From positions 7,630 through 71,629 of the forward strand of contig JAZDJA010000184.1 in the NCBI GenBank assembly GCA_043804415.1: a stretch of DNA of 64,000 bases, written 5' to 3'. The stretch is from Candidatus Latescibacterota bacterium (lineage in GTDB: Bacteria; Latescibacterota; 4484-107). Positions within the stretch are counted from its first letter, which is position 1. Every line of letters starts with the position of its first letter. The position numbers and the translations under genes are program-made. This document shows positions 1,429-52,522 of the stretch, piece by piece. The notes below the pieces were generated by a model that ran no database searches, was not told the DNA's origin, and saw only the letters and a list, made by a program, of their open reading frames with translations.

Positions 1429-2646
1429 ATGAACAAGCAAAGAGCAGCGGGGGGCCCTTTGAGCGAAGATGCGCTGCGGGGTCCTATGAAAATCGCCAAG
1501 ATACGAACCTGGCTGGTGGAAGGGGTCCTATACAACTGGACGCTGATTAAGATCCATACCGACGACGGGCTCACGGGAATCGGAGAAGCCACCAACTGGC
1601 CCGGCAGCCCCCTGGTCGAAGCCGCCTGCCGACACGTGGCCGATTTGCTGGTCGGCGAAGACGCCACGCGTATCGACTATCTTTGGACCAAGCTCTACCA
1701 GGACATGAACTGGCTCGGGCAGGCGGGCCCGCTACTAAGTGCCATCAGCGCTGTCGATATCGCACTGTGGGACATCGCAGGCAAGCGCGCGGGGCTGCCG
1801 GTTTACCAACTCCTCGGTGGCGCCTATCGCACAGATATCGAACTCTATGCAAACTGCTGGTTCACAGAGAGCGATGGATCCCCGGAATCATACGCTTCGG
1901 ATGCGCGACGGATGCAGGCACTTGGGTATAGTGCCTGCAAATTCGATCCCTTCGCGCACACCAACTACACCTACGGCGCACACCTCTCCACCAATCTGTC
2001 GCTCTCAGAAGAGCAGAAGCGGCTGGCGATGGAGCGGCTTTGCGCGGTCTCCGAGGCGCTGGGCCCGGATTTTCCCATCGCGGTCGAAACCCACGCCATG
2101 CTCAACGGACCCGTGGCCATGGAGATGGCACACCGTATCGCAGCAGCAGGCATCAACTGCATGTGGTATGAGGAGCCGGCCGGTCCCGAGTTCCCCGAAC
2201 AGATCGCCGAGATCAAGCGCCGCATTCCGCTGCCCGTCTGCGTCGGTGAGCGACTGCACAGCCGTTTCATGTGCCGGCGGATACTGGACCTGCAGGCTAC
2301 CGATATCTTGATGCCGGACGTTACGCGCTGCGGCGGCATCAGCGAATTGCGCAAGATCGCCTATTTGGCCGAATGCTACAACGTGCCCATCGCTCCACAC
2401 AACCCCAATGGTCCCATCTCGACCATCGCGTCCGCGCACGTGGCGGCATCGATTCCGAATTTCTTCCGCCAGGAGTTTGTGGTCAACGACGTGCCGTGGC
2501 GGGATACGGTGCTGGACAAGCCCTTGCCGGTCCAAGAGGGCCACTTCCTGCTCGGCGACGAACCGGGGCTCGGCTTCGACCTGGTGGAGCGGGAACTGGA
2601 AAGGCATCCGGGGGTACGCACGCCGCGCCCGGGATTTTATATCTGA
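1429..2646 (+). CDS. enolase-superfamily (mandelate racemase/muconate lactonizing enzyme family) sugar-acid dehydratase, galactonate/fuconate dehydratase-like
   Basis: KIHTDDGLTGIGEAT N-terminal capping-domain signature and TIM-barrel metal-ligand region; ATG 1429 has a strong AAAGGAG RBS (an alternative start is 1486). Confidence 0.8.
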   Translation: MNKQRAAGGPLSEDALRGPMKIAKIRTWLVEGVLYNWTLIKIHTDDGLTGIGEATNWPGSPLVEAACRHVADLLVGEDATRIDYLWTKLYQDMNWLGQAGPLLSAISAVDIALWDIAGKRAGLPVYQLLGGAYRTDIELYANCWFTESDGSPESYASDARRMQALGYSACKFDPFAHTNYTYGAHLSTNLSLSEEQKRLAMERLCAVSEALGPDFPIAVETHAMLNGPVAMEMAHRIAAAGINCMWYEEPAGPEFPEQIAEIKRRIPLPVCVGERLHSRFMCRRILDLQATDILMPDVTRCGGISELRKIAYLAECYNVPIAPHNPNGPISTIASAHVAASIPNFFRQEFVVNDVPWRDTVLDKPLPVQEGHFLLGDEPGLGFDLVERELERHPGVRTPRPGFYI

Positions 2647-2757
2647 TACCCTCTCAGGTGAAAAGGAGCCCCTTCGATACAAACTCCACCGATGAGACCG
2701 ATACGATCTCATCGGTCTGCATGAAATCGTCTCAAGACCAGCCAAGAGGAGTATGCT

Positions 2758-3781
2758 GTGAAACTTGTCCTGTATGGCGCTTTCCGGCGGCCCTATCTTC
2801 CGGTGCTGCGCGAAGCGCTTGCGACACAATGGGAGATCACCACCGGCGAGAACGACCAGAGCTGGCTGCTGGGCGAGATCGCCGAAGCCGACGCGCTGTT
2901 GGCACAGAAGCTGCCGTTGGAGGCGCGCCCCACGGCTCGGAGATTGAAAGCACTGCTGGTCCCTGGCGCGGGAGTAATCCATTCCGACCCGGCGGAGTTG
3001 CCCGCGGGCTGCGTGCTGGCCAACGTATTCGAACACGAAATCCCGATCGCGGAATACGTGATGACTGCGATCCTCCTGCACGTCACGCAGGCGGTGCCCT
3101 ATATGAGATCGTTCGGCGAGGGCTCTTGGGAAGGCAGCGGACGATTGGGCGGGCAGTTACACGATGAGATCCATGGCAAGACGCTCGGACTTATCGGGTA
3201 CGGCCATATCGGGCAGGCGGTTGCTGCCCGCGCTCGGGCCTTCGGCATGAAGGTGTGCGCGATCTGCGCCCATCCGAGTACGGCAGCACCGGAACCGGCG
3301 GCGTGGGCAGATTTCCTCGGCGGCCCAGCGGATCTGGACCGCGCTCTGGAATCGTCCGACTTCCTGGTGATCGCCTGCCCGCTCACGACCGCGACCGAAG
3401 GCATGATCGGAGAACGGGAGCTTGCCCGCATGCCCACCCACGCCATGATCATCAACGTGGCACGTGCCGAGATCATACAGGAAGCACCCCTGTACGAGGC
3501 CCTGCCGGACGCGCGGCATCGCCGCGTCCGCGCTTGATGCCTGGTACCGCTATCCCGCGCACCTGGGCGAACGGATGCACGGTTCCGCGCTGCCGTTTCA
3601 CGAGTTGGACAACGTTATGGCCACCCCGCATTTTTCCGGATGGACGCACGCCCTGCTCGAACGGCGCGTGCGCAAGATCGCCGCTAACCTGGACCGCCTG
3701 GCCCGGGGCGAGGAACTGGAGCGCGTGGTGCTGCGCGGGACGTGGCGGCCCGAGTCGCAGCCGTCTCCGGCGGGAAGATGA
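2758..3781 (+). pseudogene. D-isomer-specific 2-hydroxyacid dehydrogenase, interrupted by a +1 frameshift near 3500-3515
   Basis: GTG start with an AGGAG RBS; NAD-binding GKTLGLIGYGHIGQAVA motif in frame 1; the C-terminal IAASALDAW...MATPHFSGWT catalytic region continues in frame 2 (ORF 3464..3781). Confidence 0.65.
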
Positions 3782-3789
3782 TTTTCAAA

Positions 3790-3877
3790 GGAATTAAGGC
3801 TTCAGCCTTTCAACGGGAGTGGCATTCTTAGCGAAACACTACCTCCTTCGGAATTAAGGCTTTAGCCTTTCATTGGG
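3790..3877. repeat. two direct copies of a 28-bp motif GGAATTAAGGCTTyAGCCTTTCAwyGGG, each containing the palindrome AAGGCT-N2-AGCCTT
   Basis: copies at 3790-3817 and 3850-3877, about 60 bp apart, in the gap between the dehydrogenase pseudogene and the next BNR gene. Confidence 0.7.
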
Positions 3878-3925
3878 GGTGGGGGCGGGTAAACAACGAA
3901 CCGATTCAGCGACTAGGAGGAAACC

Positions 3926-5161
3926 ATGAGCAAAGACAGTGTCAAACTCACGAATTGCATTCAGACCCTTCCGACGGAGTATGTGATAGAGAGCAATGAC
4001 ACGGATGCCTCCGGGCTCTACCCGTTTTCGCGGCTGATCTCCTCGGTCTCGCCCCACGTGGTCAGACAGGAGAATCCCAAGGGTCCGCGCTACCAGGAAG
4101 GACTGAGCTACACCTTCCTGATCAATTCGGCGAAGTTTCCGGGACTCACCAAACTGGATGATGGGAGGCTGGCACTTACCCTCAGTGGAGACCTCAAATA
4201 TGAATTTGTCAACGAGGGAGACCGGCGCGAAGCACTACTCCTTTTCTCCGACGACGATGGGATCACGTGGACCCAACCCAGGCGGGTCCCGATCCACCGA
4301 AGCATCCCGATCAATCTCGGGGGCGAAAAACTGATGCTCCGAGGCAATGCCGGGCCCGCCCATGCGCACTGCATCAGTAACGATGGGGGCGCGACCTGGG
4401 GAAATGTGGAACCCATTCCCCCTGCTCCCGATGGCCGGGAGGGCTACACCGACCTGGTCCTTCATCCCCTGGTCGAAGGGGACACCGTCACCGCCATCTT
4501 TTACTCCTCAGAGCCCGGCTCCGACGACCAGTATGGCAAGCTCATCACAGACGGCAAACGACCTCCTCTTGCGCACAGTTTCATCAGGCGCTACCACCTC
4601 TCCACGAAAACGTGGGACGACCCGGTATATTTCCCCCTCGAGTGGCGCACGATCGAAGGCATGCTCACCCGCGCCAAAGACGGCAGCTTGGTGGCCGCGT
4701 TTCGCACGGACATGCCGGCCGACGTGACAGCGCCCTCGGATCACTGGGACGGGATCATGACCACCCGATCGACCGACGATGGAAAGACATGGTCCGAGCC
4801 CGCCCGTCACTTCAAGTACGGGTATATGCACACGCACCTGCTCTCCCTCCCGGACGGCCGCATCGTGCTGACCTACGCGGCCCGGATCGGCGAGTTGGAT
4901 GGGAGGAACTACCACGGCATCGAGGCGGTTGTAAGCTCGGATAACGGCGTTACGTGGGACTGGGAACACCGGTTCATTCTCTTCCGCTGGACCGATCAAT
5001 GCACCCACAGTCCGCAGTCCGTGCAGCTTTCAGATGGGAGAATCCTCACCGTGTTTCTGCACGGCAAGAACTTCACCTGGACCGATCGACCCGAGCGTAC
5101 CGTCAAAACCAATCTCTTGTACCTTGGAAACGTCACGGTGGTGATCTGGAATATCACCTGA
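3926..5161 (+). CDS. BNR/Asp-box sialidase-like propeller protein, a distant paralog of the tandem pair at 10965/12355
   Basis: Asp-boxes FSDDDGITWTQP, SNDGGATWG, STDDGKTWSEP, SSDNGVTWDW; strong RBS AGGAGG before ATG 3926; the C-terminal half is roughly half-identical to 10965..12152. Confidence 0.7.
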   Translation: MSKDSVKLTNCIQTLPTEYVIESNDTDASGLYPFSRLISSVSPHVVRQENPKGPRYQEGLSYTFLINSAKFPGLTKLDDGRLALTLSGDLKYEFVNEGDRREALLLFSDDDGITWTQPRRVPIHRSIPINLGGEKLMLRGNAGPAHAHCISNDGGATWGNVEPIPPAPDGREGYTDLVLHPLVEGDTVTAIFYSSEPGSDDQYGKLITDGKRPPLAHSFIRRYHLSTKTWDDPVYFPLEWRTIEGMLTRAKDGSLVAAFRTDMPADVTAPSDHWDGIMTTRSTDDGKTWSEPARHFKYGYMHTHLLSLPDGRIVLTYAARIGELDGRNYHGIEAVVSSDNGVTWDWEHRFILFRWTDQCTHSPQSVQLSDGRILTVFLHGKNFTWTDRPERTVKTNLLYLGNVTVVIWNIT

Positions 5162-5313
5162 GGGCACGGCAGCCACCGCCCATCCACCAAGCCTTGGCAT
5201 GCGGCACACCAGCGATCCGGGAGCGGAGCTTCCCCCACGCAGGCGGGCGGACAGAACGGATGGCGAGGGTACAGACAGTGGTGCAACCGGTAGATTCGAA
5301 AAAGGGAGCAGAG

Positions 5314-6468
5314 ATGAAGATCACGAGGATTACGGCACATCTGATGGGAATCCCCGGACCGGGCGGGCACTCCCCCGCGCGCAACTGGACCTTTGTCAAA
5401 GTGGAAACCGACGAAGGCATCGTGGGGGTCGGCGAAGCAACTACCGAATGGCATGAGCAGGCAGTTGTCGCGATGATCGAGCACCATTTTGCACCCCTGT
5501 TGATCGGTCAGGATCCGACCGGAGTGACGCGTGCATGGCAGCAAATGCAGCGCTTTTTCTGGTGGCGAAACGGTGTGGTGGCCGCAAGTGCCGCCAGTGG
5601 TATCGAGCAGGCTCTGTGGGATATTACCGGCAAAGCATACGGACAGCCGGTATACAAGTTACTCGGGGGCGCCGTAAGAGATCGCGTCAGGGTGTATGCC
5701 CGAAGCGATCTTGGATTGAGCAACTACGTGGAGGAGATCAAGACTGCCAGGGAGGAAGGGATTACGGGGTTCAAGTTTGCGCCCGGCAAGCTCGTGGAGC
5801 CATTCGATGACGAAAAGCAAGTCGATGTTGCGCTTGACTTGGCTCGGGACCTTCGAAAGGCTGGTGGACCCGAATGCGACCTCATGATCGATTGTCACGG
5901 CAACTTCTCTTTGCAGGCGGCACACCGACTGATCGACCGGATCCGGGAACACAAGATGCTGTTTATCGAAGAGCCCACGAATGCGGATACACCGGGCCCA
6001 CTCGTGGCGCTTCGACGCGCCTTTCCAGACCAGCGGATCGCGGCTGGCGAACGGCTGATGACTCGCTGGGGATTTCGCGAGTGGTTGGAGACCGGAGCGG
6101 TGGATGTGATCCAGGCCGACATTTCGCACTGTGGGGGAATTGGCGAATTACTGCGGATTGCCTCTTACGCCGAGATCCACAACGTCCGGGTGGCTCCGCA
6201 CAACCCTTATGGACCTGTGGCTTTGGCGGCCAGCGCCCACGCGTGCGCGGCCATGCCCAATTTTCTGATTTTGGAGTACTGCCGTCACCGGCCCTGGATT
6301 CACGAGGTGGTCAAATTCGGCCCGCAAGTTGCGGAGGGATGCGTCCAGCTCGATGATCGCCCGGGCTTGGGAGTGGAACTGGATTGGGACTATGTGGCCA
6401 GGCACCCCTATCAGCCGCTGGACTATTGGATTTACAGCGATCGAGACAACGCCCTTCCCTGCATCTGA
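5314..6468 (+). CDS. enolase-superfamily sugar-acid dehydratase (mandelate racemase family)
   Basis: VETDEGIVGVGEAT capping-domain motif and barrel domain; RBS GGGAGCAGAG before ATG 5314; paralog of 1429..2646. Confidence 0.8.
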   Translation: MKITRITAHLMGIPGPGGHSPARNWTFVKVETDEGIVGVGEATTEWHEQAVVAMIEHHFAPLLIGQDPTGVTRAWQQMQRFFWWRNGVVAASAASGIEQALWDITGKAYGQPVYKLLGGAVRDRVRVYARSDLGLSNYVEEIKTAREEGITGFKFAPGKLVEPFDDEKQVDVALDLARDLRKAGGPECDLMIDCHGNFSLQAAHRLIDRIREHKMLFIEEPTNADTPGPLVALRRAFPDQRIAAGERLMTRWGFREWLETGAVDVIQADISHCGGIGELLRIASYAEIHNVRVAPHNPYGPVALAASAHACAAMPNFLILEYCRHRPWIHEVVKFGPQVAEGCVQLDDRPGLGVELDWDYVARHPYQPLDYWIYSDRDNALPCI

Positions 6469-6522
6469 GACCGCAAATCGTGGATCACAGGGCTGCGGCA
6501 AAAACCAAAAAGGAGGCACCCC

Positions 6523-7413
6523 ATGCCAGCTGTCAAACCGTACGACCTCAATAAGATCAGGTATTTCAAGTGGGTGGATCATCCGGAATCGATTTCCGTG
6601 GGTCCGGAAGGCGAGGCCTATACCACAGGAACCGGATTCCAGGTGTACCGGCTGGACGTGACGAACCACACCAGCGAGCAATACGCCTCGACCGCCCCGC
6701 GACGCATGCTCGGGCAGGCAGTGGATGCGGATGGAAACCTGTATTGTGCGGACATAGGGCATTATTCTTCTCCCGATATCCTCAGCAAGGTCATCCGCCT
6801 GACCCCGGATGGGAAGGAAAGCGTGTATGCCACTGCGCCAGGCGGCAAAGGTTTTCTATGTGCGAATTATCCTGCGTTCGATCGCAAGGGCAACATGTAT
6901 CTGTCGGACAGCGGGGACTGGTCAGAAGAGATAAACGGGCACATTTACAGAATCCCGCCCGGAGGGGGTGAGGCGCAGCTCTGGTTTCCCGAGCCGGTAT
7001 ACACGCCCAACGCGATCGCTTTGGATGCGGCAGAGGAGTTCCTTTATTTTGTGGACTCATTCGGGAACGGTGTCGCTCGTATTGCCATCAAGAAGGACGG
7101 CTCCGCAGGGGCGCTTGAATATGTAGTATATATGCCCCACCATATTCCGGACGGCATCGCTCTGGATGAGGAGGGAAACATTTGGATCTCCTGTCATCGT
7201 CCCGACGTCATCTACATCCTTGATATCAAGACCAGGCGCCTTGAAGTGTTTGCCGAAGACTGGCGGGGTGAAGCGCTTCGCGCGCCCACGGATGTGGCAT
7301 TTGCGGGGCCCGACCGGGATGTCCTGCTTGTGGCATCCCTTGGCCGCCACGATGTGCATCGCCTTGACCATGTCGGCGTGCGCGGTCTGCGTCTCAACAA
7401 TCCCAAACTATAG
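6523..7413 (+). CDS. SMP-30/gluconolactonase/LRE-family lactonase
   Basis: 296-aa beta-propeller lactonase-like sequence; RBS AAAGGAGG upstream; sits between a dehydratase and a dehydrogenase in a lactone-forming oxidative sugar pathway context. Confidence 0.7.
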   Translation: MPAVKPYDLNKIRYFKWVDHPESISVGPEGEAYTTGTGFQVYRLDVTNHTSEQYASTAPRRMLGQAVDADGNLYCADIGHYSSPDILSKVIRLTPDGKESVYATAPGGKGFLCANYPAFDRKGNMYLSDSGDWSEEINGHIYRIPPGGGEAQLWFPEPVYTPNAIALDAAEEFLYFVDSFGNGVARIAIKKDGSAGALEYVVYMPHHIPDGIALDEEGNIWISCHRPDVIYILDIKTRRLEVFAEDWRGEALRAPTDVAFAGPDRDVLLVASLGRHDVHRLDHVGVRGLRLNNPKL

Positions 7414-37687: not shown

Positions 37688-38392
37688 ATGAGGAGCTTTC
37701 AAACCACTCTCTTAACTGCTCTCGTATGGCTGACGACAGCGATTTCTTCAGCCTATGCCAACGATCCCGCCGACTTCTTCCCATTGCATGTGGGAGATGT
37801 CTGGGAATACGACAACTATGACATCCAGACTGACTGGACTGTGGTGGAAGTGGTGGGAGACTCGGCGATCAATGGGAGGCAATACTACAAGATGCGGGAA
37901 ACCTCGTCTTCCGTGGGAAACGTGTATCGATACAGTCCCCTCTGGGTGAGGATCAATGACGCCTTCGAGGTCTTACAATATTCCTTCCACCGGCAGGCTG
38001 ACGTCTTGATGCTTCGGCTCGACGCGTCGGTGGAGGATAGCTGGGAGGGATACGAGCCACTGCGTTCGGCTGATTTCATTTATGAGTCTGATGAGAACTG
38101 GATGCCGACAGTGGTGTTGCGAGACCGCGGACGGATGCGAGACATCTCCATGAACAAGTTTCTGGATTTCCTCGAAGACGAGCGGGAGGCGCTTCGCTTC
38201 GTGTATGATTTTGTTGCTATTGAGAATACCTACGCATATGTGGATGGGATTGGACTCGTCGGGTGGGCAGGAGAAGGAAACGTGGGGCTCAGGCTGCGTG
38301 GAGCGATCATTGGCGGCGTGCGCTACGGCACATTGACCGTTGGGGTTGAACCCTCTTCCTGGGGACATATCAAAACTCTTTTTGTGCACTGA
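37688..38392 (+). CDS. secreted hypothetical protein with the C-terminal motif ...PSSWGHIKTLFVH
   Basis: signal peptide MRSFQTTLLTALVWLTTAISSAYA; strong RBS AAGGAGG; the C-terminus shares (S/T)WGx(I/V)K with the proteins at 46351 and 47281. Confidence 0.6.
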   Translation: MRSFQTTLLTALVWLTTAISSAYANDPADFFPLHVGDVWEYDNYDIQTDWTVVEVVGDSAINGRQYYKMRETSSSVGNVYRYSPLWVRINDAFEVLQYSFHRQADVLMLRLDASVEDSWEGYEPLRSADFIYESDENWMPTVVLRDRGRMRDISMNKFLDFLEDEREALRFVYDFVAIENTYAYVDGIGLVGWAGEGNVGLRLRGAIIGGVRYGTLTVGVEPSSWGHIKTLFVH

Positions 38393-44238: not shown

Positions 44239-44634
44239 CGGGAATACTCCCATCAAAGGCTATCGGACACGGATGTCACGGAGTTCAGGAATCCAACCCA
44301 GGAAAAAGGGGCGGATAATTCAATGAGGGCCTACCCGCTGTATTTTCAGGGGTCCTCCCCAACGAGATTATTGTTCTAAATCTAATCAGTGGGCCCCGAA
44401 AAGTCAAGCGCTTTTCGAGGGACGCACACGTGCGGATCAGCCGACAACTCGCTATGCGGAATCTGGGAATGCTTCAGCATCACCGAACCCTTCCGCCCCG
44501 GATAGGCTGTCCGCACAAGAGTGCAAACCCGGGTATAAAAACGCTTGCTTTTTGCAGGCAAACTTTTTATGTTTCGAAAAGAGGGACTGCATTTCAACTA
44601 TTCTTTACCCCACGGAGCGCGAAAGGAACGCACG

Positions 44635-46041
44635 ATGTTACTCTTAGATCATGCCGCAAAACAGCGTATTCATGAGGGCAGTCTTTCGATCCTCTCCGAG
44701 CTGGGCGTACGGGTGGAACACGCGGAAACCTTAAGCCGCCTGGAATCGCGCGGGGCCAAAATCGACCGCACCGCCCGAATCGCCCATCTTCCAGAAACCC
44801 TCGTCGAATGGGCATTGGAGAGAGCGCCCTCAGCGATCACACTCTCGGATCGGAGAGGTCGACGGTTTGACCTGCACCCACGTGGGGACTCGATGTATTG
44901 GACGGGCAACGCTCTCTATATGATCGAGGGCGACCGGCGGGTGGACATCGATTCCGACCGGTTTATCCAAATGGCGCGGTTGGTGGATGCCCTGGATCAG
45001 CCGGATGCGATGGTGGGAACCAGCCTGTGCGATGTGCCACCCGTATGTCGGGATTTTGTGGGCTTCCGCCTGATTGCGGAGCATACCACCCGGCACATCC
45101 GACCGGTCATCTTCACCGCCCAGGGGGCCAACGCCATCCTGGAGATGGCCGAGGTGCTCTCGGAGGGAGCGGACATGGCCGAACACCCCCTCTTCAGTCT
45201 CGGATACAGCAACGTCAGTCCCCTCCGCTGGACGGAAACGGCGATGGGGCTGATGACCCTGACCTCCGGGAAGAAGATTCCCATGATGATCAATGCGGAA
45301 CCGATGGCAGGCGGCACGTCCCCGGTCACCCTCGCGGGTTCGATCCTGGCGGCCAATGCGGAAATTCTCAGCGGCATCGTGATCGCCCAACTGTTGGAGG
45401 AAGCGCGTCCGTGTATCTACAATCTGGGTTTCGCGCACGTCTTGGACATGCGCACCACCGTGGCCCTGACCGGCTCCCCGGAACCGTGCCTGTTCGCGGT
45501 CAGCGGGGCGGAGATGGCAGCACATTACGATCTCCCATGCGCCTCATGGGTCAGCACGGACGCGACTGTAATCGATTCCCAAAGCGCGTATGAGAAGATG
45601 ATGGGATTCCTCACGCACACCTCCGCCGGGGTCAATGCGATCTGGGGCATAGGCCAGATGGAGGCGCAACTCTCGCTCTCTCTGACCCAGGCGGTGCTCG
45701 ACGATGAGATGCTCGGAATGGTGCATCGTTTCCTCCGGGGATTCGAGACGGACGCGGAGCATCTCGCCCTGGACGTAATCCGGGAGGTCGGATTTGACGG
45801 GGATTTCCTGAGCCACGATCACACCCTGGACCACTACCGCGAGGAGCTGAGCACCAGCGAACTGGCCAACCGGAATCGGCGCGGAACATGGGAACAGGAC
45901 GGAAGGAAGAGCATCGAGCAGCGCGCTCAGGAGAAAGTGAAAAAACTCCTGGCAGTCGAAAAGGAATGTGTCACAGGGGACCAGAAGAGGGAACTTGGGA
46001 GGATTGAGAAAAGCTGGCGCAAAAAGTTGGGAGCCTTGTGA
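44635..46041 (+). CDS. MttB-superfamily (trimethylamine methyltransferase-like, non-pyrrolysine) methyltransferase
   Basis: 468 aa; TIM-barrel MttB-like sequence along the full length, with no in-frame amber. Confidence 0.75.
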   Translation: MLLLDHAAKQRIHEGSLSILSELGVRVEHAETLSRLESRGAKIDRTARIAHLPETLVEWALERAPSAITLSDRRGRRFDLHPRGDSMYWTGNALYMIEGDRRVDIDSDRFIQMARLVDALDQPDAMVGTSLCDVPPVCRDFVGFRLIAEHTTRHIRPVIFTAQGANAILEMAEVLSEGADMAEHPLFSLGYSNVSPLRWTETAMGLMTLTSGKKIPMMINAEPMAGGTSPVTLAGSILAANAEILSGIVIAQLLEEARPCIYNLGFAHVLDMRTTVALTGSPEPCLFAVSGAEMAAHYDLPCASWVSTDATVIDSQSAYEKMMGFLTHTSAGVNAIWGIGQMEAQLSLSLTQAVLDDEMLGMVHRFLRGFETDAEHLALDVIREVGFDGDFLSHDHTLDHYREELSTSELANRNRRGTWEQDGRKSIEQRAQEKVKKLLAVEKECVTGDQKRELGRIEKSWRKKLGAL

Positions 46042-46150: not shown

Positions 46151-46350
46151 TCTCACCTTTCACGTGTTGCACCTTCCGGAAACAATTTCCCTCGTTTCTT
46201 CACCGAATCGCCAAGGGAAGACAGCGCATGAGAAGCGTCTTCTCTTGGACAAAGCTTTTGTCCCCTAACCTGTCTCCTGGGCGCACGGGGGGATACCTCG
46301 AATGGGCATCTCCTTTCTTGAACCAGAGACGGCTGGGAAAACCGCGCTAC

Positions 46351-47190
46351 CTAGCGATGCGATGACTTGATCTGTCCCCAGGTGGCAGATCTTACGGCTA
46401 TTCGAGCGTGCCCCATCGAAATGGTCTCTTCCTGGGTCCAACCGGCGGTAAGCATTGAAGCATTGGTAAACACAATTTCAGGGGTGAGTGGATCAAATGA
46501 AAACGTCACAGTGAAACTAATCCAAACCCGATTCGGAAGAAAAGATTCCGTAATCGTGATTGTAACAGAATCGCCGGTTAGGATATACGTTCCTCGTTCT
46601 GCGGTAAATCCAACATCCTGACGAAACGAATAGAACGAACCCCCTTCCAACTGAATACCAATAATTGCTGAGTACTCTGCTTTCTGTTCCGGGGGATAGA
46701 TCTCCCACCATCCCTCGAACGGTTCAGGATCGTCATAGTCCCTATCATAAAAGGTAACCTGCTCTTCGCCAGCATAGCCAAAGGTCAACTCCAGAGCGTT
46801 TGTAAACGTAATATAACCTCCAGATCGTGAGACAGTTACGGTGAACGTAATCCCAATCCGATCGGCAATATCGGATCCGGTAATATCTATGATGACCGAA
46901 TCTCCTGAAACGGTGTATACACCCCGTTCACAGATAGTTTTCAGGGTATCTTCTCCAGGGGTAAAGTATCTATCCTGACCGGCCCCTTTCCGCTCAACAA
47001 AATCCTGATCGTAACACTCAGAGCCAAACGAGCCAGTTGTCGAGAATCTTAAAATGAAAGCCTCTGCTTTATAAGGTAATTCAGAGAAGAACTACAATCC
47101 CTCTACTCCACTATCTTCTGCGAATACCAGACCGCTCAATCCCATCGCGACAACCAACAGCACAGCAAGCATTGAGACGATTCCTCTCAT
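46351..47190 (-). pseudogene. secreted protein with the C-terminal motif ...SATWGQIKSSHR, interrupted by an in-frame TAG 9 codons after the predicted signal-peptidase site
   Basis: signal peptide MRGIVSMLAVLLVVAMGLSGLVFA-ED at 47190 with RBS GGAGGTG; TAG at 47092-47094; the open frame continues to 46351 without an alternative ATG until 46788. Confidence 0.5.
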
Positions 47191-47280
47191 AGTACACCTC
47201 CCTTTCGTGATCCAGAGACGGTTGAGAAAACCGCACCCTCTACTGATGCGATGACTTGATCTTGCCCCACGAGTTTGCCC

Positions 47281-48198
47281 TTACTTGAGACTCGCCTTCA
47301 CCGCACCCCAGGACGTGGGTGCCACCGCCACAGGTACATCATAGAGCGGATTGCCCACGAGGTAAGCATCGTTCAAGTAATCGGCACTCGTACCGGGGTA
47401 TGTGAGGTACTCGGGACCCGCAGTTCCGATCTGGGTATCCCTAGTGCCCAACTTCACATCGCAATCATCCCACCAGATGGCCAACCCTATAGGCACCCCA
47501 GCCTCGTAGGTTGCCATAGCGTCGTGCATCCTGGACTCCCCAACGGAAAGCCCAACTTCGTCCCAAAGGGCCAGCTTGAACTCATACGCATAGGTCACAT
47601 CCGTCGTGCCGGCGGGATAGTCAGTCACGGCGTAAAAAAACTCCGGGCTTGTTATCCACGCAGCTTCGTCCGAAGCCCAGATGTGGCACACGGTATCGTC
47701 ATCATTCCCACCGGGCCCCATGGCAACGCCCTGCTTAAGCCGTACGCCGAACATCTGGGCGTACTCAGCGTCCAAGTCGCCCCACCTGTAGTTCCCGCCG
47801 ATGTTGCCGGCATCCGTCATAATTTCGAGGTTGTCCTCCGTCCAGCAATTGCCGTTGGTGGGACGACCGACCTGCAGGACGTCGTCGGTCACCCGGCTGT
47901 ACCCATAGAGCATATTGTCGGTACTCCAACCGAGGTACAGGACAGCGGAAAAGTCCTCCGGTCCGGAAAGCTCGGAACCCCCCACCAGCCCGAAGTAATC
48001 GGGATCATCCACAGATGAGAGCATATAAGCCTGAGGATACACCGCAGGGTCCTCCCAATCAATACCCAACCCATCAATGGTGATGAGTGCTGGGTTGATG
48101 TAAGGAATGGTGAGATCCGGACGAGTGACCTGGGCATACACGGCGCCGGCCAACACACATATCATCAACACACCTATCGCCAAAATGATTCCTCTCAT
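47281..48198 (-). CDS. secreted hypothetical protein with the C-terminal motif ...PTSWGAVKASLK
   Basis: signal peptide MRGIILAIGVLMICVLAGAVYA-Q; RBS GGAGGTG; the 5' and 3' flanks are duplicated at the neighbouring gene 46351..47190. Confidence 0.6.
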   Translation of the reverse strand: MRGIILAIGVLMICVLAGAVYAQVTRPDLTIPYINPALITIDGLGIDWEDPAVYPQAYMLSSVDDPDYFGLVGGSELSGPEDFSAVLYLGWSTDNMLYGYSRVTDDVLQVGRPTNGNCWTEDNLEIMTDAGNIGGNYRWGDLDAEYAQMFGVRLKQGVAMGPGGNDDDTVCHIWASDEAAWITSPEFFYAVTDYPAGTTDVTYAYEFKLALWDEVGLSVGESRMHDAMATYEAGVPIGLAIWWDDCDVKLGTRDTQIGTAGPEYLTYPGTSADYLNDAYLVGNPLYDVPVAVAPTSWGAVKASLK

Positions 48199-48234
48199 AG
48201 TACACCTCCGTTGTGTATTGGATGCTGCAAAAAA

Positions 48235-48825: not shown

Positions 48826-51489
48826 TCATTTCTCTCTTCTGGCACGCAGCACCGACAGCCCAGCACCATCGGTACCGAACCATATCCTCCCATCCGGCCC
48901 CTGAACGATGGACCGCACGCCCTCGCTACCGATCCCTGAGACCCACTCCCGGCCATCGAAACGGCTCAGGCCATTGTTCCTTGTGGCCACCCAGGCGAAT
49001 CCTTCGCTGTCCGCCATCAATGCCTGCACATCCAATCCAGGCAGACCGTCCTGTTCCCCAAAGTGGCTCCACGTCTCTCCGTCAAAGCGGCTCACTCCGT
49101 TCCCATCCGTGGCAATCCAGATGGTCCCCGCCGGATCGGTCGCAATCAGGTTGACCTGGTTGCTGAGCAACCCCTCTTCGGTGGTGTAGTGCGTCCACGT
49201 TTCCCCATCGAAGCGATTCACGCCACCCCCCCGGGTAGCCATCCAGATGGTCCCGGAGGCATCTTCGGCAAGATCGGTCACATTGTTGCTGCTCAGCCCG
49301 TCGCTCTCAGTGTAGGTCTTCCACCCCTTTCCGTCGTATACGGTGACGCCCTTCCCCTTCGCCGAATCCCAGTCCCTGGTCCACACCGAGCTCCACACCC
49401 TTCCCAGGTGATCCACGGTCACAAATCCAGTGCTCCCATCCAGATGGGGGATGCCTTTCTTCCCATCGTACCGGGAGAGGCCGTCGCGACTCGCGATCCA
49501 TGCCCCGCCCTCCAGATCCACTGCCAGGTCCCGAATGCCCCACATGGAGAAACTCTCATCCGCCTCGAACGCCCGCCAGCCTTCCCCGTCAAAGGTGCAC
49601 AAACCTCCCGCCAGCACCCACGGAAGGCCGCCCTTATCGAAGGCGATCGATCTGACCTGGTTTCCGGAGAGACCATCCTCAGTGGTCAGGGCCGTCCATG
49701 TGCCCCAATCCGACCGGTCGTCCCGATCCCCCACATTGAGCCATTCGTTGATCTGAAAGGTCACCACTTCCTTGACATCCACGCTGGCCGTCTCCGCCTG
49801 CGTCTCGGGAATATCGAACTTGAGCCCCATTACCCGGTTCCCGTCATAGCGGGGGTCGGTTTCGGGCTCACAAATATTCACGCTGAAGTCGAATCCGCCC
49901 CGAGACTGCTTCGCCTGCACCAACAGCGTGTTGCGCCCCTCGGTCACGGGAAGCTCCTTGCGGTCATTGGGCAGCTTATGACGCCGCACCCCCTGGTAAT
50001 CATACACTTCCGATCCGTTGATCCAGACCTTCAAGTCCTCCCCGGATCCGATCCAAAGTTCGGCAGTCTGTGATCTGGGGGCCACGAACTCCGTGTACGC
50101 ATACACCAGGCAGTTGACCGGATCCTTGTAGTAGGTGTCCAAGTCAATCCGGTCATCGTGGAAATACACCGGTTTGCTCCAACCGTCCTGATCCGGCACC
50201 ACCTGAAGCGCCTGAGGATCGGGCAACATACTTTCCTTCTCCGATATCCCGAAGGGACCGCTCAGCACCCACGTGCGCGCGCCCTGGCCGTAATGTCCCT
50301 GCTCACCCCATTTCCCAGTGCCCACCGGGCACTTCTCGAAACGGCGGGCCACCTGGTCAATGGTATTCCCATTCACCTTGATGTACGCCATGTCGGATTT
50401 TCCCAGCCCTTTGGTGGCTGCCAAGGTCAGGTACTCGATGTCATCCGGGTTGAATCCGATCAGTCGGGCCGAGACCGCGTCCGCTGCCACGATGTCCGCG
50501 CTGGCCACAATCATGTTCATCCGCACGGGCCGGCCGCCGCCGTATTCGTCGGTCTTGCGCCGCTCCATACACATGAGGGCATCCACCACCACAAAATCCA
50601 CACCGGACAGGGAGGTGAGATCCACGATGGTCTCATCCAAGATCGCCGGCGTATGCGCAAGTCCCGGGTTTCCGCTGCCCGGGGGAAAGCCCATGTTCTT
50701 GGACCACCCGTAGATCATGCCCGGAGCAATGCCCACAAAGTTCTTCATCGCATTGGTCATCCCCACCCCATCGTGAATTTTGAGCACCGGGACGGAAATC
50801 AGCACGTCGCATTCCAGCACCGTGGCCGGGATGAAATACTTCTCGCGCGCATACCACTGGTCTGGAACACTCACCTCGATGGCCTCATCGAAGTTTAGAT
50901 CCACGATGTCGAGCTGAATGCCGGCAAGGGCCTCATCCTTCAAAAGGGCCCGGTACCCGGCCACCTCAAAGCCATCTCCCAGATTGGACTGGGGGATCCT
51001 CGCCTGGATGTCGGCGTGGTCGGCGGTGATCCACTCCCCGTTGCCCTCGGCAATGGTGATCCGCGCCTCCGGAGCGATCGCATGCACGATCTTCACCAGC
51101 GCCTTGATCACCCGAACATCGGTGATCACGCCCGATCCGCTGGGCTTTAGTTCCACGACGTTCGCCTTGAGCACCACCCAGTCCGTGCCCGGCTCAATGA
51201 TCGTGTGCAGCCCGCCGGCCTCGGTGATCGCGTAACGGACCATGGCCTCCACCTGCGCCTCGGTCAGCGCCGAGTCCGGGGATGCCGGTTCTCCCAACTG
51301 CGCGAAGTCGGAGCGAATCACGCCAACCACGGATTGGTCCGGCTTGGTGGCTGCCGAGACCGCATCTACTATGCCATACCCGGCGCCCGTATGCTCCTCC
51401 GGAGACTTTGCCATATCCAACACGACCATCAGAACCAAGCCCACCCCAACCAGCCCCCACGATATGTGCTTCCTGGCACATTTGCTCAT
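48826..51489 (-). CDS. membrane-anchored or secreted protein with an N-terminal DUF362 domain fused to two-component-regulator-type beta-propeller repeats (Reg_prop)
   Basis: start MSKCARKHISWGLVGVGLVLMVVL (signal/anchor); DUF362-like ...VLKANVVELKPSGSG...LKIHDGVGMTNAMKNFVG...; repeated GL(S/C)RFDGExW propeller units. Confidence 0.65.
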   Translation of the reverse strand: MSKCARKHISWGLVGVGLVLMVVLDMAKSPEEHTGAGYGIVDAVSAATKPDQSVVGVIRSDFAQLGEPASPDSALTEAQVEAMVRYAITEAGGLHTIIEPGTDWVVLKANVVELKPSGSGVITDVRVIKALVKIVHAIAPEARITIAEGNGEWITADHADIQARIPQSNLGDGFEVAGYRALLKDEALAGIQLDIVDLNFDEAIEVSVPDQWYAREKYFIPATVLECDVLISVPVLKIHDGVGMTNAMKNFVGIAPGMIYGWSKNMGFPPGSGNPGLAHTPAILDETIVDLTSLSGVDFVVVDALMCMERRKTDEYGGGRPVRMNMIVASADIVAADAVSARLIGFNPDDIEYLTLAATKGLGKSDMAYIKVNGNTIDQVARRFEKCPVGTGKWGEQGHYGQGARTWVLSGPFGISEKESMLPDPQALQVVPDQDGWSKPVYFHDDRIDLDTYYKDPVNCLVYAYTEFVAPRSQTAELWIGSGEDLKVWINGSEVYDYQGVRRHKLPNDRKELPVTEGRNTLLVQAKQSRGGFDFSVNICEPETDPRYDGNRVMGLKFDIPETQAETASVDVKEVVTFQINEWLNVGDRDDRSDWGTWTALTTEDGLSGNQVRSIAFDKGGLPWVLAGGLCTFDGEGWRAFEADESFSMWGIRDLAVDLEGGAWIASRDGLSRYDGKKGIPHLDGSTGFVTVDHLGRVWSSVWTRDWDSAKGKGVTVYDGKGWKTYTESDGLSSNNVTDLAEDASGTIWMATRGGGVNRFDGETWTHYTTEEGLLSNQVNLIATDPAGTIWIATDGNGVSRFDGETWSHFGEQDGLPGLDVQALMADSEGFAWVATRNNGLSRFDGREWVSGIGSEGVRSIVQGPDGRIWFGTDGAGLSVLRARREK

Positions 51490-51514
51490 GGTGCGCTCTC
51501 TTTCTTTTACGCTC

Positions 51515-52522
51515 TCATTCCAGTGATACCGGCGCTCCCTGCCGGTCCATCGAACGTTGACATGCATCCAGCACCCGAAGTACGCGCAGACCGTCTCGTC
51601 CGTCGCTTCTCGGGGGAATGCGCGTTTGTACACTGGCGACGAAATGCTCGCACTCCGCGCGCAACGGCTCTGTCATGGCGATCCTCGGAATCAGCACATC
51701 GCCCCAGCGCAGAGAGAGCGATTCCCCGTAGGTGCTGTAGTCGCCGCTCTGTTCCACGCCCTTATCGTAAACCCGGATACTCTCCCCGGTGGCCATATCG
51801 TCGAACACGGCCATCTTTCGGCTGCCCACCAGCGTGAGTTTTCGGATCTTGTGGGGATCCAGCCAACTCACGTGAATGTGCGCCATTGCGCCTCCCTCAA
51901 AATGAAGAATGGCAAAGGCCACGTCCGGGACGCCGTCCTGAAGATAGGACTGGCCCACGGCAGTCACCCGGACCGGCTCCTTTCCCATCAGAAAAAGCAC
52001 CATCGACACATCGTGCGGCGCAAGGCTCCACAGGGCGTTCTCGTCCTTGCGCACCTTTCCCAGATTCACGCGCTCGGAATACAGATAGTAGAGATCTCCC
52101 AGATCCCCCTGATCCACATAGTCCTTCAGTTGGAGCAGTGCGGAGTGATACTCCATCAAATGCCCGACCATCAGGATGCGCCCCCGCTCCTCAGCCAGGC
52201 GCACCAGGCGCTCCCCGTCCGCCACAGCGAGCACCATGGGCTTCTCCACGAACACGTCCTTGCCCGCCTCCAGAGCCTGAGCAGCCAACGCATAGTGCGT
52301 GACAGGCAACGTGGCAATGACCACCGCATCCACTTCCGGATCGGAGATGACCTCGTCGGGCACCGCGGTCGTCCGAATCGCAGGGAAATTTTGGCCGATC
52401 CCCACAAGCACGTCCGGATTGGCATCGCACGCCATCACCACCTGGCTGTCCCGAAGCCCGTCAAAATTCCGGAGCAGATTCCTGCCCCAGCTTCCCACCC
52501 CGATCTGCCCAATACGTATCAT
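51515..52522 (-). CDS. Gfo/Idh/MocA-family oxidoreductase (nucleotide-sugar dehydrogenase-like)
   Basis: MIRIGQIGVGSWGRN Rossmann motif; RBS AGGAGGG; EKP catalytic motif. Confidence 0.8.
   Translation of the reverse strand: MIRIGQIGVGSWGRNLLRNFDGLRDSQVVMACDANPDVLVGIGQNFPAIRTTAVPDEVISDPEVDAVVIATLPVTHYALAAQALEAGKDVFVEKPMVLAVADGERLVRLAEERGRILMVGHLMEYHSALLQLKDYVDQGDLGDLYYLYSERVNLGKVRKDENALWSLAPHDVSMVLFLMGKEPVRVTAVGQSYLQDGVPDVAFAILHFEGGAMAHIHVSWLDPHKIRKLTLVGSRKMAVFDDMATGESIRVYDKGVEQSGDYSTYGESLSLRWGDVLIPRIAMTEPLRAECEHFVASVQTRIPPRSDGRDGLRVLRVLDACQRSMDRQGAPVSLE

Follow-up and report, generated by a model that had tools for sequence, protein, structure and literature searches.

Introduction

Short C-terminal tags have been reliable guides to the bacterial cell envelope. 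LPXTG, PEP-CTERM and the C-terminal domain of the type IX secretion system (T9SS) each led to a dedicated envelope machine, and such tags let annotators predict which 'hypothetical' proteins are displayed at the surface. Small C-terminal sorting signals have been defined by seven criteria, and in every established case a transmembrane helix places the signal at an intramembrane sorting enzyme (Haft, 10.1101/2023.06.07.544157). Here we analyzed a 64-kb stretch of contig JAZDJA010000184.1 (the window), the source of which is a Candidatus Latescibacterota metagenome-assembled genome (MAG), and in which three open reading frames (ORFs) share a short C-terminal ending. The shared ending is a real tag of about 15 residues that closes many unrelated exported proteins of Candidatus Latescibacterota and its uncultured relatives. 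It is apparently undescribed: no description was found in the searchable literature (queried by motif text and sequence strings, and for Latescibacteria and sorting signals) or in Pfam and NCBIfam. The tag is probably an address label, and we assign a probability of roughly one half to its being a recognition tag that acts after Sec export in sorting or envelope attachment.

Such a tag matters for annotation and for mechanism. Its carriers belong to many unrelated families from soil, sediment and marine bacteria that are abundant and uncultured, and no current domain library covers the tag, such that a hidden Markov model (HMM) for it would at once point to many envelope or surface proteins and supply a clean phylogenetic-profiling signal for a reader or processing enzyme. 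A tag with an invariant Lys and without a transmembrane helix also falls outside the established rule for such signals, and its mechanism is likely new.

A shared ending on three genes of the window

The original prediction held that three secreted proteins of the window share a C-terminal motif. The endings of all three ORFs (proteins 1 and 2 and gene 3) were found as claimed (Table 1), and their N-termini, read by eye from the translations, fit classical Sec signal peptides with predicted cleavage at ...AISSAYA then ND (protein 1), ...LAGAVYA then QV (protein 2) and ...GLVFA then ED (gene 3). Thus, the tails and signal peptides are present on all three, while the description as three secreted proteins does not hold for gene 3, a nonsense pseudogene (see below). 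The mature domains are dissimilar, as had been proposed, with a best pairwise BLASTP E-value of 0.06 among the three; for that of protein 1, no family was matched in Pfam or NCBIfam. Protein 2 has the same sequence as V1800_09895 of the MAG, and its homologues keep the ending AVEP[ST]SWGAVKAS[LF][KR] down to 43% identity. A metagenome protein (at L101) was noted to have an N-terminal motif (PL.VG..W.Y) similar to that of protein 1 together with a canonical tail; this likeness is of the motif only and unaligned.

Six-frame translation of the window gave four copies of the motif WG.[IVLM]K, compared to about 1.07 copies expected from composition. A stop is found 4-5 codons after the motif in all four copies, whereas a stop at a distance of 3-6 codons follows only 7% of positions (P ~2e-5), and the predicted excess of the motif near C-termini was thereby confirmed within the window. 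The fourth copy, absent from the original prediction, is an orphan remnant located between the two adjacent genes, protein 2 and gene 3. When an HMM of the tail was run over 691 ORF C-termini, seven scored at least 31 bits and the next best 6 bits. At least six tags are carried by the MAG, namely the three of the window and those of V1800_01675, V1800_01685 and V1800_06855; a fragment, V1800_01680, was also detected.

Conservation of the tag beyond the window

To extend the comparison beyond the window, a degenerate DNA probe for [AG]VE[PA][ST][ST]WGx[IV]K was used, which identified at least 120 loci in JGI metagenomes and one contig in IMG/VR. The figures derived from the metagenome probe (position, export, clusters and contigs) refer to the matches listed. 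The consensus of the tag is T-A-V-E-P-(S/T)-(S/T)-W-G-x-(I/V)-K-x-(L/I/M)-(Y/F)-(R/K)-COOH. A stop follows 3-6 codons after the Lys in 102 of 124 matches, compared to about 7% expected, with exactly four residues after the Lys in 69 and five in 23. With an HMM of canonical tails, some 30 additional tails of greater divergence were recovered from these contigs, with the core [ST]WGx[IVL]Kxx[YF][RK]. Searches by other routes yielded less: a protein search with a 43-aa tail alignment returned 11 candidates and 2 hits, its word index being unsuited to short motifs, and a search for related loci with a trimmed family alignment returned 3 loci.

The sole listed match with a long continuation (299 aa) was at L046, where the sequence reads ...WGLIKRNLI-MSKKPVFEP... 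and suggests a lost stop codon that fused the tail gene to the next gene. In several cargo families, one or two Cys residues stand just upstream of the tag, at residues -6 to -3 before AVEP in the metagenome tails (for example ..DDPCxPT/AVEP, ..GxGCxxxT/AVEP and ..DCDACDS/AVEP); these may form a disulfide that closes the domain ahead of a flexible tail.

For a sample unbiased by the probe, we used the family of protein 2. An exhaustive HMMER search with a profile of this CBM9-like family gave 406 clusters at E<=1e-3, and the tag was found to end 95 of the best 150 representatives inspected. Among 93 tails of this sample, matched with residue Trp+4 left free, the residue at Trp+4 is Lys in 93/93 and never Arg. 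Trp is likewise present in all 93, and Trp+1 is Gly in 75 and Ala in 17 (G/A in 92/93). Trp+3 is I in 68, V in 15, L in 7 and M in 3, whereas upstream the tails have S/T at Trp-1 (84), E at Trp-4 (64), V at Trp-5 (83) and A at Trp-6 (73). The Lys is followed by 4-5 residues in 69 of these tails and by 6-11 in 24. One CBM9-like subfamily (P0217, P0232, P0239, P0248, P0231 and P0268) ends ...FILDPP....W..I..LLKP, in which the hydrophobic spacing is kept and the Gly and Lys are lost; this ending may be a diverged tag or a sign that the last part forms a helix.

The tag is conserved as peptide and not as DNA. Across 66 distinct coding sequences, third codon positions of the tag are 46% identical; synonymous sites are free and residues fixed, and therefore selection is on the peptide. 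These observations bear on the possibility that the endings are similar without any function of their own, as the last strand of related domains or as a recombination site at the DNA level. The DNA-level duplication of gene ends and the recombination remnants of the window are of the kind that such a site would leave. Mature domains of tagged proteins are unrelated, however, the tail is unpacked in both structure models (see below), and the residues are fixed, while synonymous sites vary, in a tag kept across contigs with G+C contents of 32% to 71%. Similarity without function is thus strongly disfavoured.

Export and cargo of tagged proteins

Tagged proteins are, as a group, exported and unrelated. 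Signal-peptide-like hydrophobic N-termini were detected in 81 of 95 5'-complete ORFs by a hydropathy heuristic. When the signal peptide and tail were removed from 106 tail proteins, the mature domains fell into 61 unrelated clusters, with folds that include CBM9-like, beta-helix, DVUA0089/PPC and lipocalin-like and many domains without a family. Tail proteins have a median length of 283 aa, and the genes are often in tandem arrays. By exact look-up, 19 of 20 submitted sequences were present among called proteins, the missing one being a deliberately shortened 45-aa fragment. Every name among the tagged proteins looked up was 'hypothetical protein' and the others were unnamed; the organism labels were Latescibacteria/Latescibacterota, 'Gemmatimonadetes/Gemmatimonadaceae bacterium' or 'bacterium'. 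Taken together, the tag is real, C-terminal, under protein-level selection, coupled to signal peptides and independent of cargo fold.

Two sets of carriers were noted in passing. Three tandem tail genes (at L117) encode proteins with DVUA0089/FDP-family (NF038127) and PPC-like domains; the DVUA0089/FDP family is also combined with other C-terminal anchors. A genuine phage contig, IMGVR_UViG_3300018063_000070 (L005), encodes a 163-aa signal-peptide protein that ends ...TAVEPSSWGEIKVRWVE. By PHROGs, this contig carries a terminase large subunit, portal, head maturation protease, major head protein and head-tail adaptor. The gene of the tagged protein lies just upstream of the terminase and near the contig end, and could be a phage moron or host DNA that flanks a prophage.

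Comparison with known sorting signals

In Pfam and NCBIfam (June 2026), no model covers the tail of the three window proteins or of ten canonical carriers. For NCBIfam, no match was obtained at E<=1 on the 13 full proteins, nor at E<=10 on 10 tail peptides. This outcome agrees with the earlier claim that the ending does not correspond to PEP-CTERM, LPXTG, GlyGly-CTERM or the T9SS C-terminal domain, as there is no HMM hit, no transmembrane helix and no basic cluster. Five of the seven features listed by Haft were found for the tag: C-terminal position, repeated occurrence within a genome, three or more near-invariant signature residues, signal peptides and unrelated carriers. The two that the tag lacks are a strongly hydrophobic transmembrane segment after the signature and a terminal cluster of 2-5 basic residues. 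Instead, the Lys of the tag is followed by mostly polar residues, usually 4-5 and up to 18, without a hydrophobic stretch, and the terminal R or K is single (55 of 68 canonical tails). Thus, the tag is similar to the three-part signals (PEP-CTERM/exosortase, LPXTG, GlyGly-CTERM, MYXO-CTERM and IPTL-CTERM) in that a short signature stands at the extreme C-terminus of unrelated signal-peptide proteins in multiple copies per genome, and differs from them in that about 8 residues, with neither transmembrane helix nor Arg cluster, follow the signature. Without a transmembrane helix, the tag therefore cannot reach an intramembrane sorting enzyme in the established way.

Among these signals, PEP-CTERM shares with the tag an E-P-S/T-rich signature and carriers that are mostly 'hypothetical' with few known domains (PMC1569441; 10.1101/2023.06.07.544157). 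The tag might be viewed, accordingly, as a PEP-CTERM-type signal in degenerate form, which an exosortase-like enzyme would still handle although the transmembrane helix has been lost. The lead is that A-V-E-P-[ST]-[ST]-W-[GA] resembles A-V-P-E-P-[ST]-[ST], the start of PEP-CTERM domains, to which the variants 'PEPxxWA' and IPTL(SEWG) may be added; we found no paper for these variants. We regard such a degenerate signal as very improbable, since no NCBIfam sorting-signal model matches, a hydrophobic stretch and a basic cluster are missing, and regular-expression matching found no PEP-CTERM-like three-part end among the 697 proteins encoded on tail-carrying contigs, compared to 29 T9SS-type C-terminal domains. 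On 747 kb of tail contigs, nothing like an exosortase or a PEP-CTERM protein was noticed. Membership in PEP-CTERM proper was rejected, as no model matches and the tag reads V-E-P rather than the near-invariant Pro-Glu-Pro of TIGR02595.

Two further comparisons were made with C-termini of exported proteins. The beta-signal of outer-membrane proteins is a terminal aromatic residue in the last strand of a beta-barrel. This assignment was rejected for the tag based on the terminal R/K of 55/68 tails, the soluble beta-sandwich and lipocalin-like models of the cargo, and the unpacked tail. The Braun lipoprotein (Lpp), which ends ...YRK and is attached to peptidoglycan by its C-terminal Lys, resembles the tag (...K-x-x-Y-R), as do the Lys-bearing peptide tags of isopeptide systems, in having a strictly conserved Lys near an exported C-terminus. 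The Lys of the tag is not terminal but 3-18 residues from the end, and a covalent link would be an analogy to Lpp and serve as a mechanistic lead only.

A slot shared with T9SS-type C-terminal domains

T9SS C-terminal domains (type A, FlgD_ig PF13860 and CHU_C PF13585) are found in the same genomes, the same tandem arrays and the same C-terminal slot as the tag. Membership of the tag in this group was rejected: the T9SS domain is folded, Ig-like, matched here over 55-82 residues and covered by HMMs of its own, whereas the tag is about 15 residues, disordered, without a Pfam hit and without sequence similarity to it. FlgD_ig and CHU_C domains were detected on proteins that adjoin tail genes, which served as a positive control. 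Tandem paralogues with a common mature domain were found to end in either the tag or a FlgD_ig/CHU_C-type domain (two sets, at L088 and L104; Table 1), and no protein with both endings was found among tail-locus proteins. The tag therefore behaves as one option in a 'choice of anchor' slot. Of the best 150 CBM9-like representatives, 55 are untagged. Nine or more of these close with a T9SS-type C-terminal domain, and one carries an IPTL-like signal that has a transmembrane helix and a basic end; fragments and other endings are among the rest. The genome of the window also uses T9SS-type C-terminal domains, because a 991-aa exported protein of the window carries FlgD_ig at its C-terminus, after an M6 (immune inhibitor A) peptidase and a right-handed beta-helix.

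Structure models of the tail

The AlphaFold2 (AF2) model of protein 2 (predicted local distance difference test score, pLDDT, 77.6; predicted TM-score, pTM, 0.81) is a CBM9-like beta-sandwich. Foldseek matched it to 7nwo (E 1e-7) and 1i82, with E-values of 1e-7 to 4e-7 and target-length-normalised TM-scores of 0.71-0.72. PF06452 scored 19.4 bits on protein 2, compared to a gathering threshold of 23.4, and is precomputed on its homologues. Protein 2 thus matches CBM9 modules in its modeled fold and differs from the modules of glycoside hydrolases in that it stands alone, with a length of about 300 aa, a signal peptide and the tag. The tail, residues 293-305, has pLDDT <50 and was modeled without secondary structure. 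For gene 3, AF2 modeled an intact homologue as two lipocalin-like domains with a disordered tail (residues 267-282, pLDDT ~25). The models thus suggest that the tag is a disordered linear extension, unpacked in two different cargo families.

The form of the tail is central to one alternative, a peripheral anchor, in which the last 10 or so residues (W-G-x-I-K-x-L-Y-R) would fold to a short amphipathic helix at the interface of the membrane or lipopolysaccharide and tether the protein non-covalently, in analogy to low-molecular-weight penicillin-binding proteins, which are tethered by C-terminal helices. The hydrophobic residues W, I, L and Y at i, i+3, i+6 and i+7, flanked by K and R, suit such a helix; the S/T and Pro ahead of them could cap it; distant CBM9-like members retain only the spacing ..SW..I..LLKP; and the hydrophobic moment of the canonical tail is 0.52 as helix compared to 0.42 as strand. 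This moment is modest, however, and two of the three window tails have a higher value as strand than as helix. AF2 gives no helix, and ten residues would be a weak anchor. A generic interfacial helix would also need neither a Lys that is never Arg (93/93) nor the strongly conserved A-V-E-P. The strict Lys, the fixed Trp-Gly and A-V-E-P argue for a specific protein contact or epsilon-amino chemistry and against a generic amphipathic anchor, which we consider unlikely.

Search for a reader and the proposed function

In the reading that we prefer, a post-Sec recognition tag, the tag would form a disordered extension of proteins that are exported by Sec and are mostly small and single-domain, and a conserved envelope factor would read this linear motif after export and decide whether the cargo is delivered to the outer membrane or cell surface or becomes attached there. 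The epsilon-amino group of the strict Lys may be the key contact or the site of covalent linkage, a role suggested because the residue is Lys and never Arg. This accords with the proposal of a sorting or processing tag as far as the properties of the ending are concerned, which is short, C-terminal, modular, linked to signal peptides and without a known model, beyond the window as well as in it; a reader or processing step is inferred only.

The co-occurring protease or sortase-like gene suggested alongside that proposal was not identified, with no candidate among neighbours of tail loci and housekeeping genes next to the tail genes of the window (DnaG, IspG, an MttB-family protein, UvrC, an EPSP_synthase-family enzyme of MurA/AroA type and RsmB). 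Beyond the cluster of the CBM9-like genes, no non-tail protein cluster recurs in three or more tail-associated loci. In this conserved cluster (Table 1), CBM9-like tail genes are accompanied by a lipoprotein of about 240 aa without a Pfam hit, two or three proteins of 600-800 aa with an F5/8-type-C domain and FlgD_ig and, in some loci, a protein of 880-970 aa that has no Pfam hit and, like an outer-membrane barrel, a terminal Phe. This cluster is missing around the CBM9-like gene of the window.

The cluster is of interest for a further alternative, in which the tag is a docking peptide that binds a receptor domain on a scaffold or outer-membrane protein, non-covalently or by a Lys isopeptide, such that many small cargo domains would assemble on one surface structure; a minimal dockerin and SnoopTag-type peptides are analogies. 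Docking would suit the small, single-domain cargo (of the median length given above), its many binding-type folds (CBM9-like, beta-helix and PPC), the disordered tail with invariant Lys and Trp, and the clustering of CBM9-like tail genes with a lipoprotein, FlgD_ig proteins and an outer-membrane-like protein. Yet no receptor domain was found, and among the 61 cargo families only one has the conserved cluster. We view docking as quite unlikely, noting that it overlaps with the recognition tag; the main difference is whether 'sorting' takes place. The data fit docking or a peripheral anchor nearly as well as they fit a sorting or processing tag.

Several points weigh against the recognition tag that we favour. 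Cleavage, attachment and final location of the tagged cargo are inferences. No cognate enzyme or receptor was found by neighbourhood clustering of tail loci. Without a transmembrane helix, the mechanism has no precedent, and the 3-18 residues found after the Lys over all tails leave a free C-terminus without a fixed distance.

A broader proposal, possible but doubtful, is that the tag defines a new sorting or attachment system in the diderm, Latescibacterota/Gemmatimonadota-labelled part of the FCB group, and would be the first small C-terminal sorting signal without a transmembrane segment. Its reader would be a soluble or outer-membrane factor that acts in the periplasm, the Lys would act as nucleophile or acceptor that couples cargo covalently to an envelope polymer or scaffold, and the system would run parallel to a T9SS-type route of the same cells and include at least one phage-borne gene.

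Gene ends and a proposed exchange of cargo bodies

Gene 3 is a TGG-to-TAG nonsense pseudogene or an assembly error, because five homologues (36-68% identity) have Trp (TGG) at the position of its in-frame TAG. The TAG lies eight codons past the predicted signal-peptide cleavage site, and the NCBI annotation at this site is a 145-aa fragment only. Pyrrolysine or other stop-codon recoding was rejected as an explanation based on the Trp of the homologues and the uninterrupted ORF of the adjoining MttB-family gene. The latter encodes a member of the trimethylamine methyltransferase superfamily without pyrrolysine. Gene 3 has a G+C content of 46.8%, compared to 58.3% for the window, and its two halves are 49% identical over 55 aa, indicative of an internal duplication.

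The duplicated 5' and 3' flanks described for the adjacent pair, protein 2 and gene 3, were recovered as an 84-nt and a 50-nt block (Table 1). It looks as if a CBM9-like body with its own tag has replaced the body of a gene-3-like paralogue between conserved gene ends. In general, such ends (the signal peptide at 5' and the tag at 3') may let tandem paralogues swap cargo bodies by recombination, and body exchange of this type would explain why the window has duplicated flanks and an orphan tag remnant. The comparable fragment V1800_01680 sits between two paralogues at another site in this MAG.

Table 1. Positions of tagged genes, tags, duplicated ends and related features. Positions without a locus label refer to the window; L-numbers are tail loci outside it.
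Feature	Position	Strand	Remarks
Protein 1, tail-bearing, 234 aa	37688..38392	+	Signal peptide MRSFQTTLLTALVWLTTAISSAYA, cleavage before N (translation)
C-terminal tag of protein 1, VGVEPSSWGHIKTLFVH	38339..38389	+	Tail HMM 46 bits; this tail was in the HMM training set
Protein 2, tail-bearing, 305 aa	47281..48198	-	Signal peptide ...LAGAVYA then Q; CBM9-like beta-sandwich mature domain
C-terminal tag of protein 2, VAVAPTSWGAVKASLK	47284..47331	-	Conserved in homologues down to 43% identity
Gene 3, tail-bearing paralogue	46351..47190	-	Two lipocalin-like repeats; nonsense-inactivated
C-terminal tag of gene 3, IAVRSATWGQIKSSHR	46354..46401	-	Family consensus AVR[PS]S[TS]WG[KQR]IKSS[HYC]R
In-frame TAG, codon 33 of gene 3	47092..47094	-	Trp in intact homologues
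Orphan gene-3-type tag remnant, ANSWGKIKSSHQ and stop	47240..47278	-	Out of frame; immediately follows the stop of the protein 2 gene
3' duplicated flank, copy 1	46312..46395	.	Tag-coding sequence and downstream untranslated stretch
3' duplicated flank, copy 2	47201..47284	.	84 nt, 77% identical to copy 1
5' duplicated flank, copy 1	47155..47204	.	Ribosome-binding site GGAGGTG and signal-peptide start (MRGI...)
5' duplicated flank, copy 2	48163..48212	.	50 nt, 76% identical to copy 1
MttB-family gene	44545-46041	+	Adjoins gene 3
935-aa protein	48826-51633	-	Directly upstream of the tail-gene pair
991-aa exported protein	60118-63093	+	FlgD_ig C-terminal domain
Paralogues with alternative endings	L088 815..2119 vs 2473..3864 and 3765..5255		32% identity, E 5e-38
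Paralogues with alternative endings	L104 2932..3675 vs 3832..6789		35% identity
CBM9-like cluster loci	L001:11068-11802, L003:3395-4171, L013:7725-8456, L039:9013-9744, L106:2026-2751, L020, L081, L087; also L004:11727-20761		
Motif with long continuation	L046 11701-11733	-
Three tandem tail genes	L117:31-2272	+	
Tail gene of the phage contig	L005:11053-11544	-	

The gene directly upstream of the tail-gene pair of the window encodes a 935-aa protein with DUF362, two-component-regulator propeller repeats and an N-terminal hydrophobic segment, and carries no tag.

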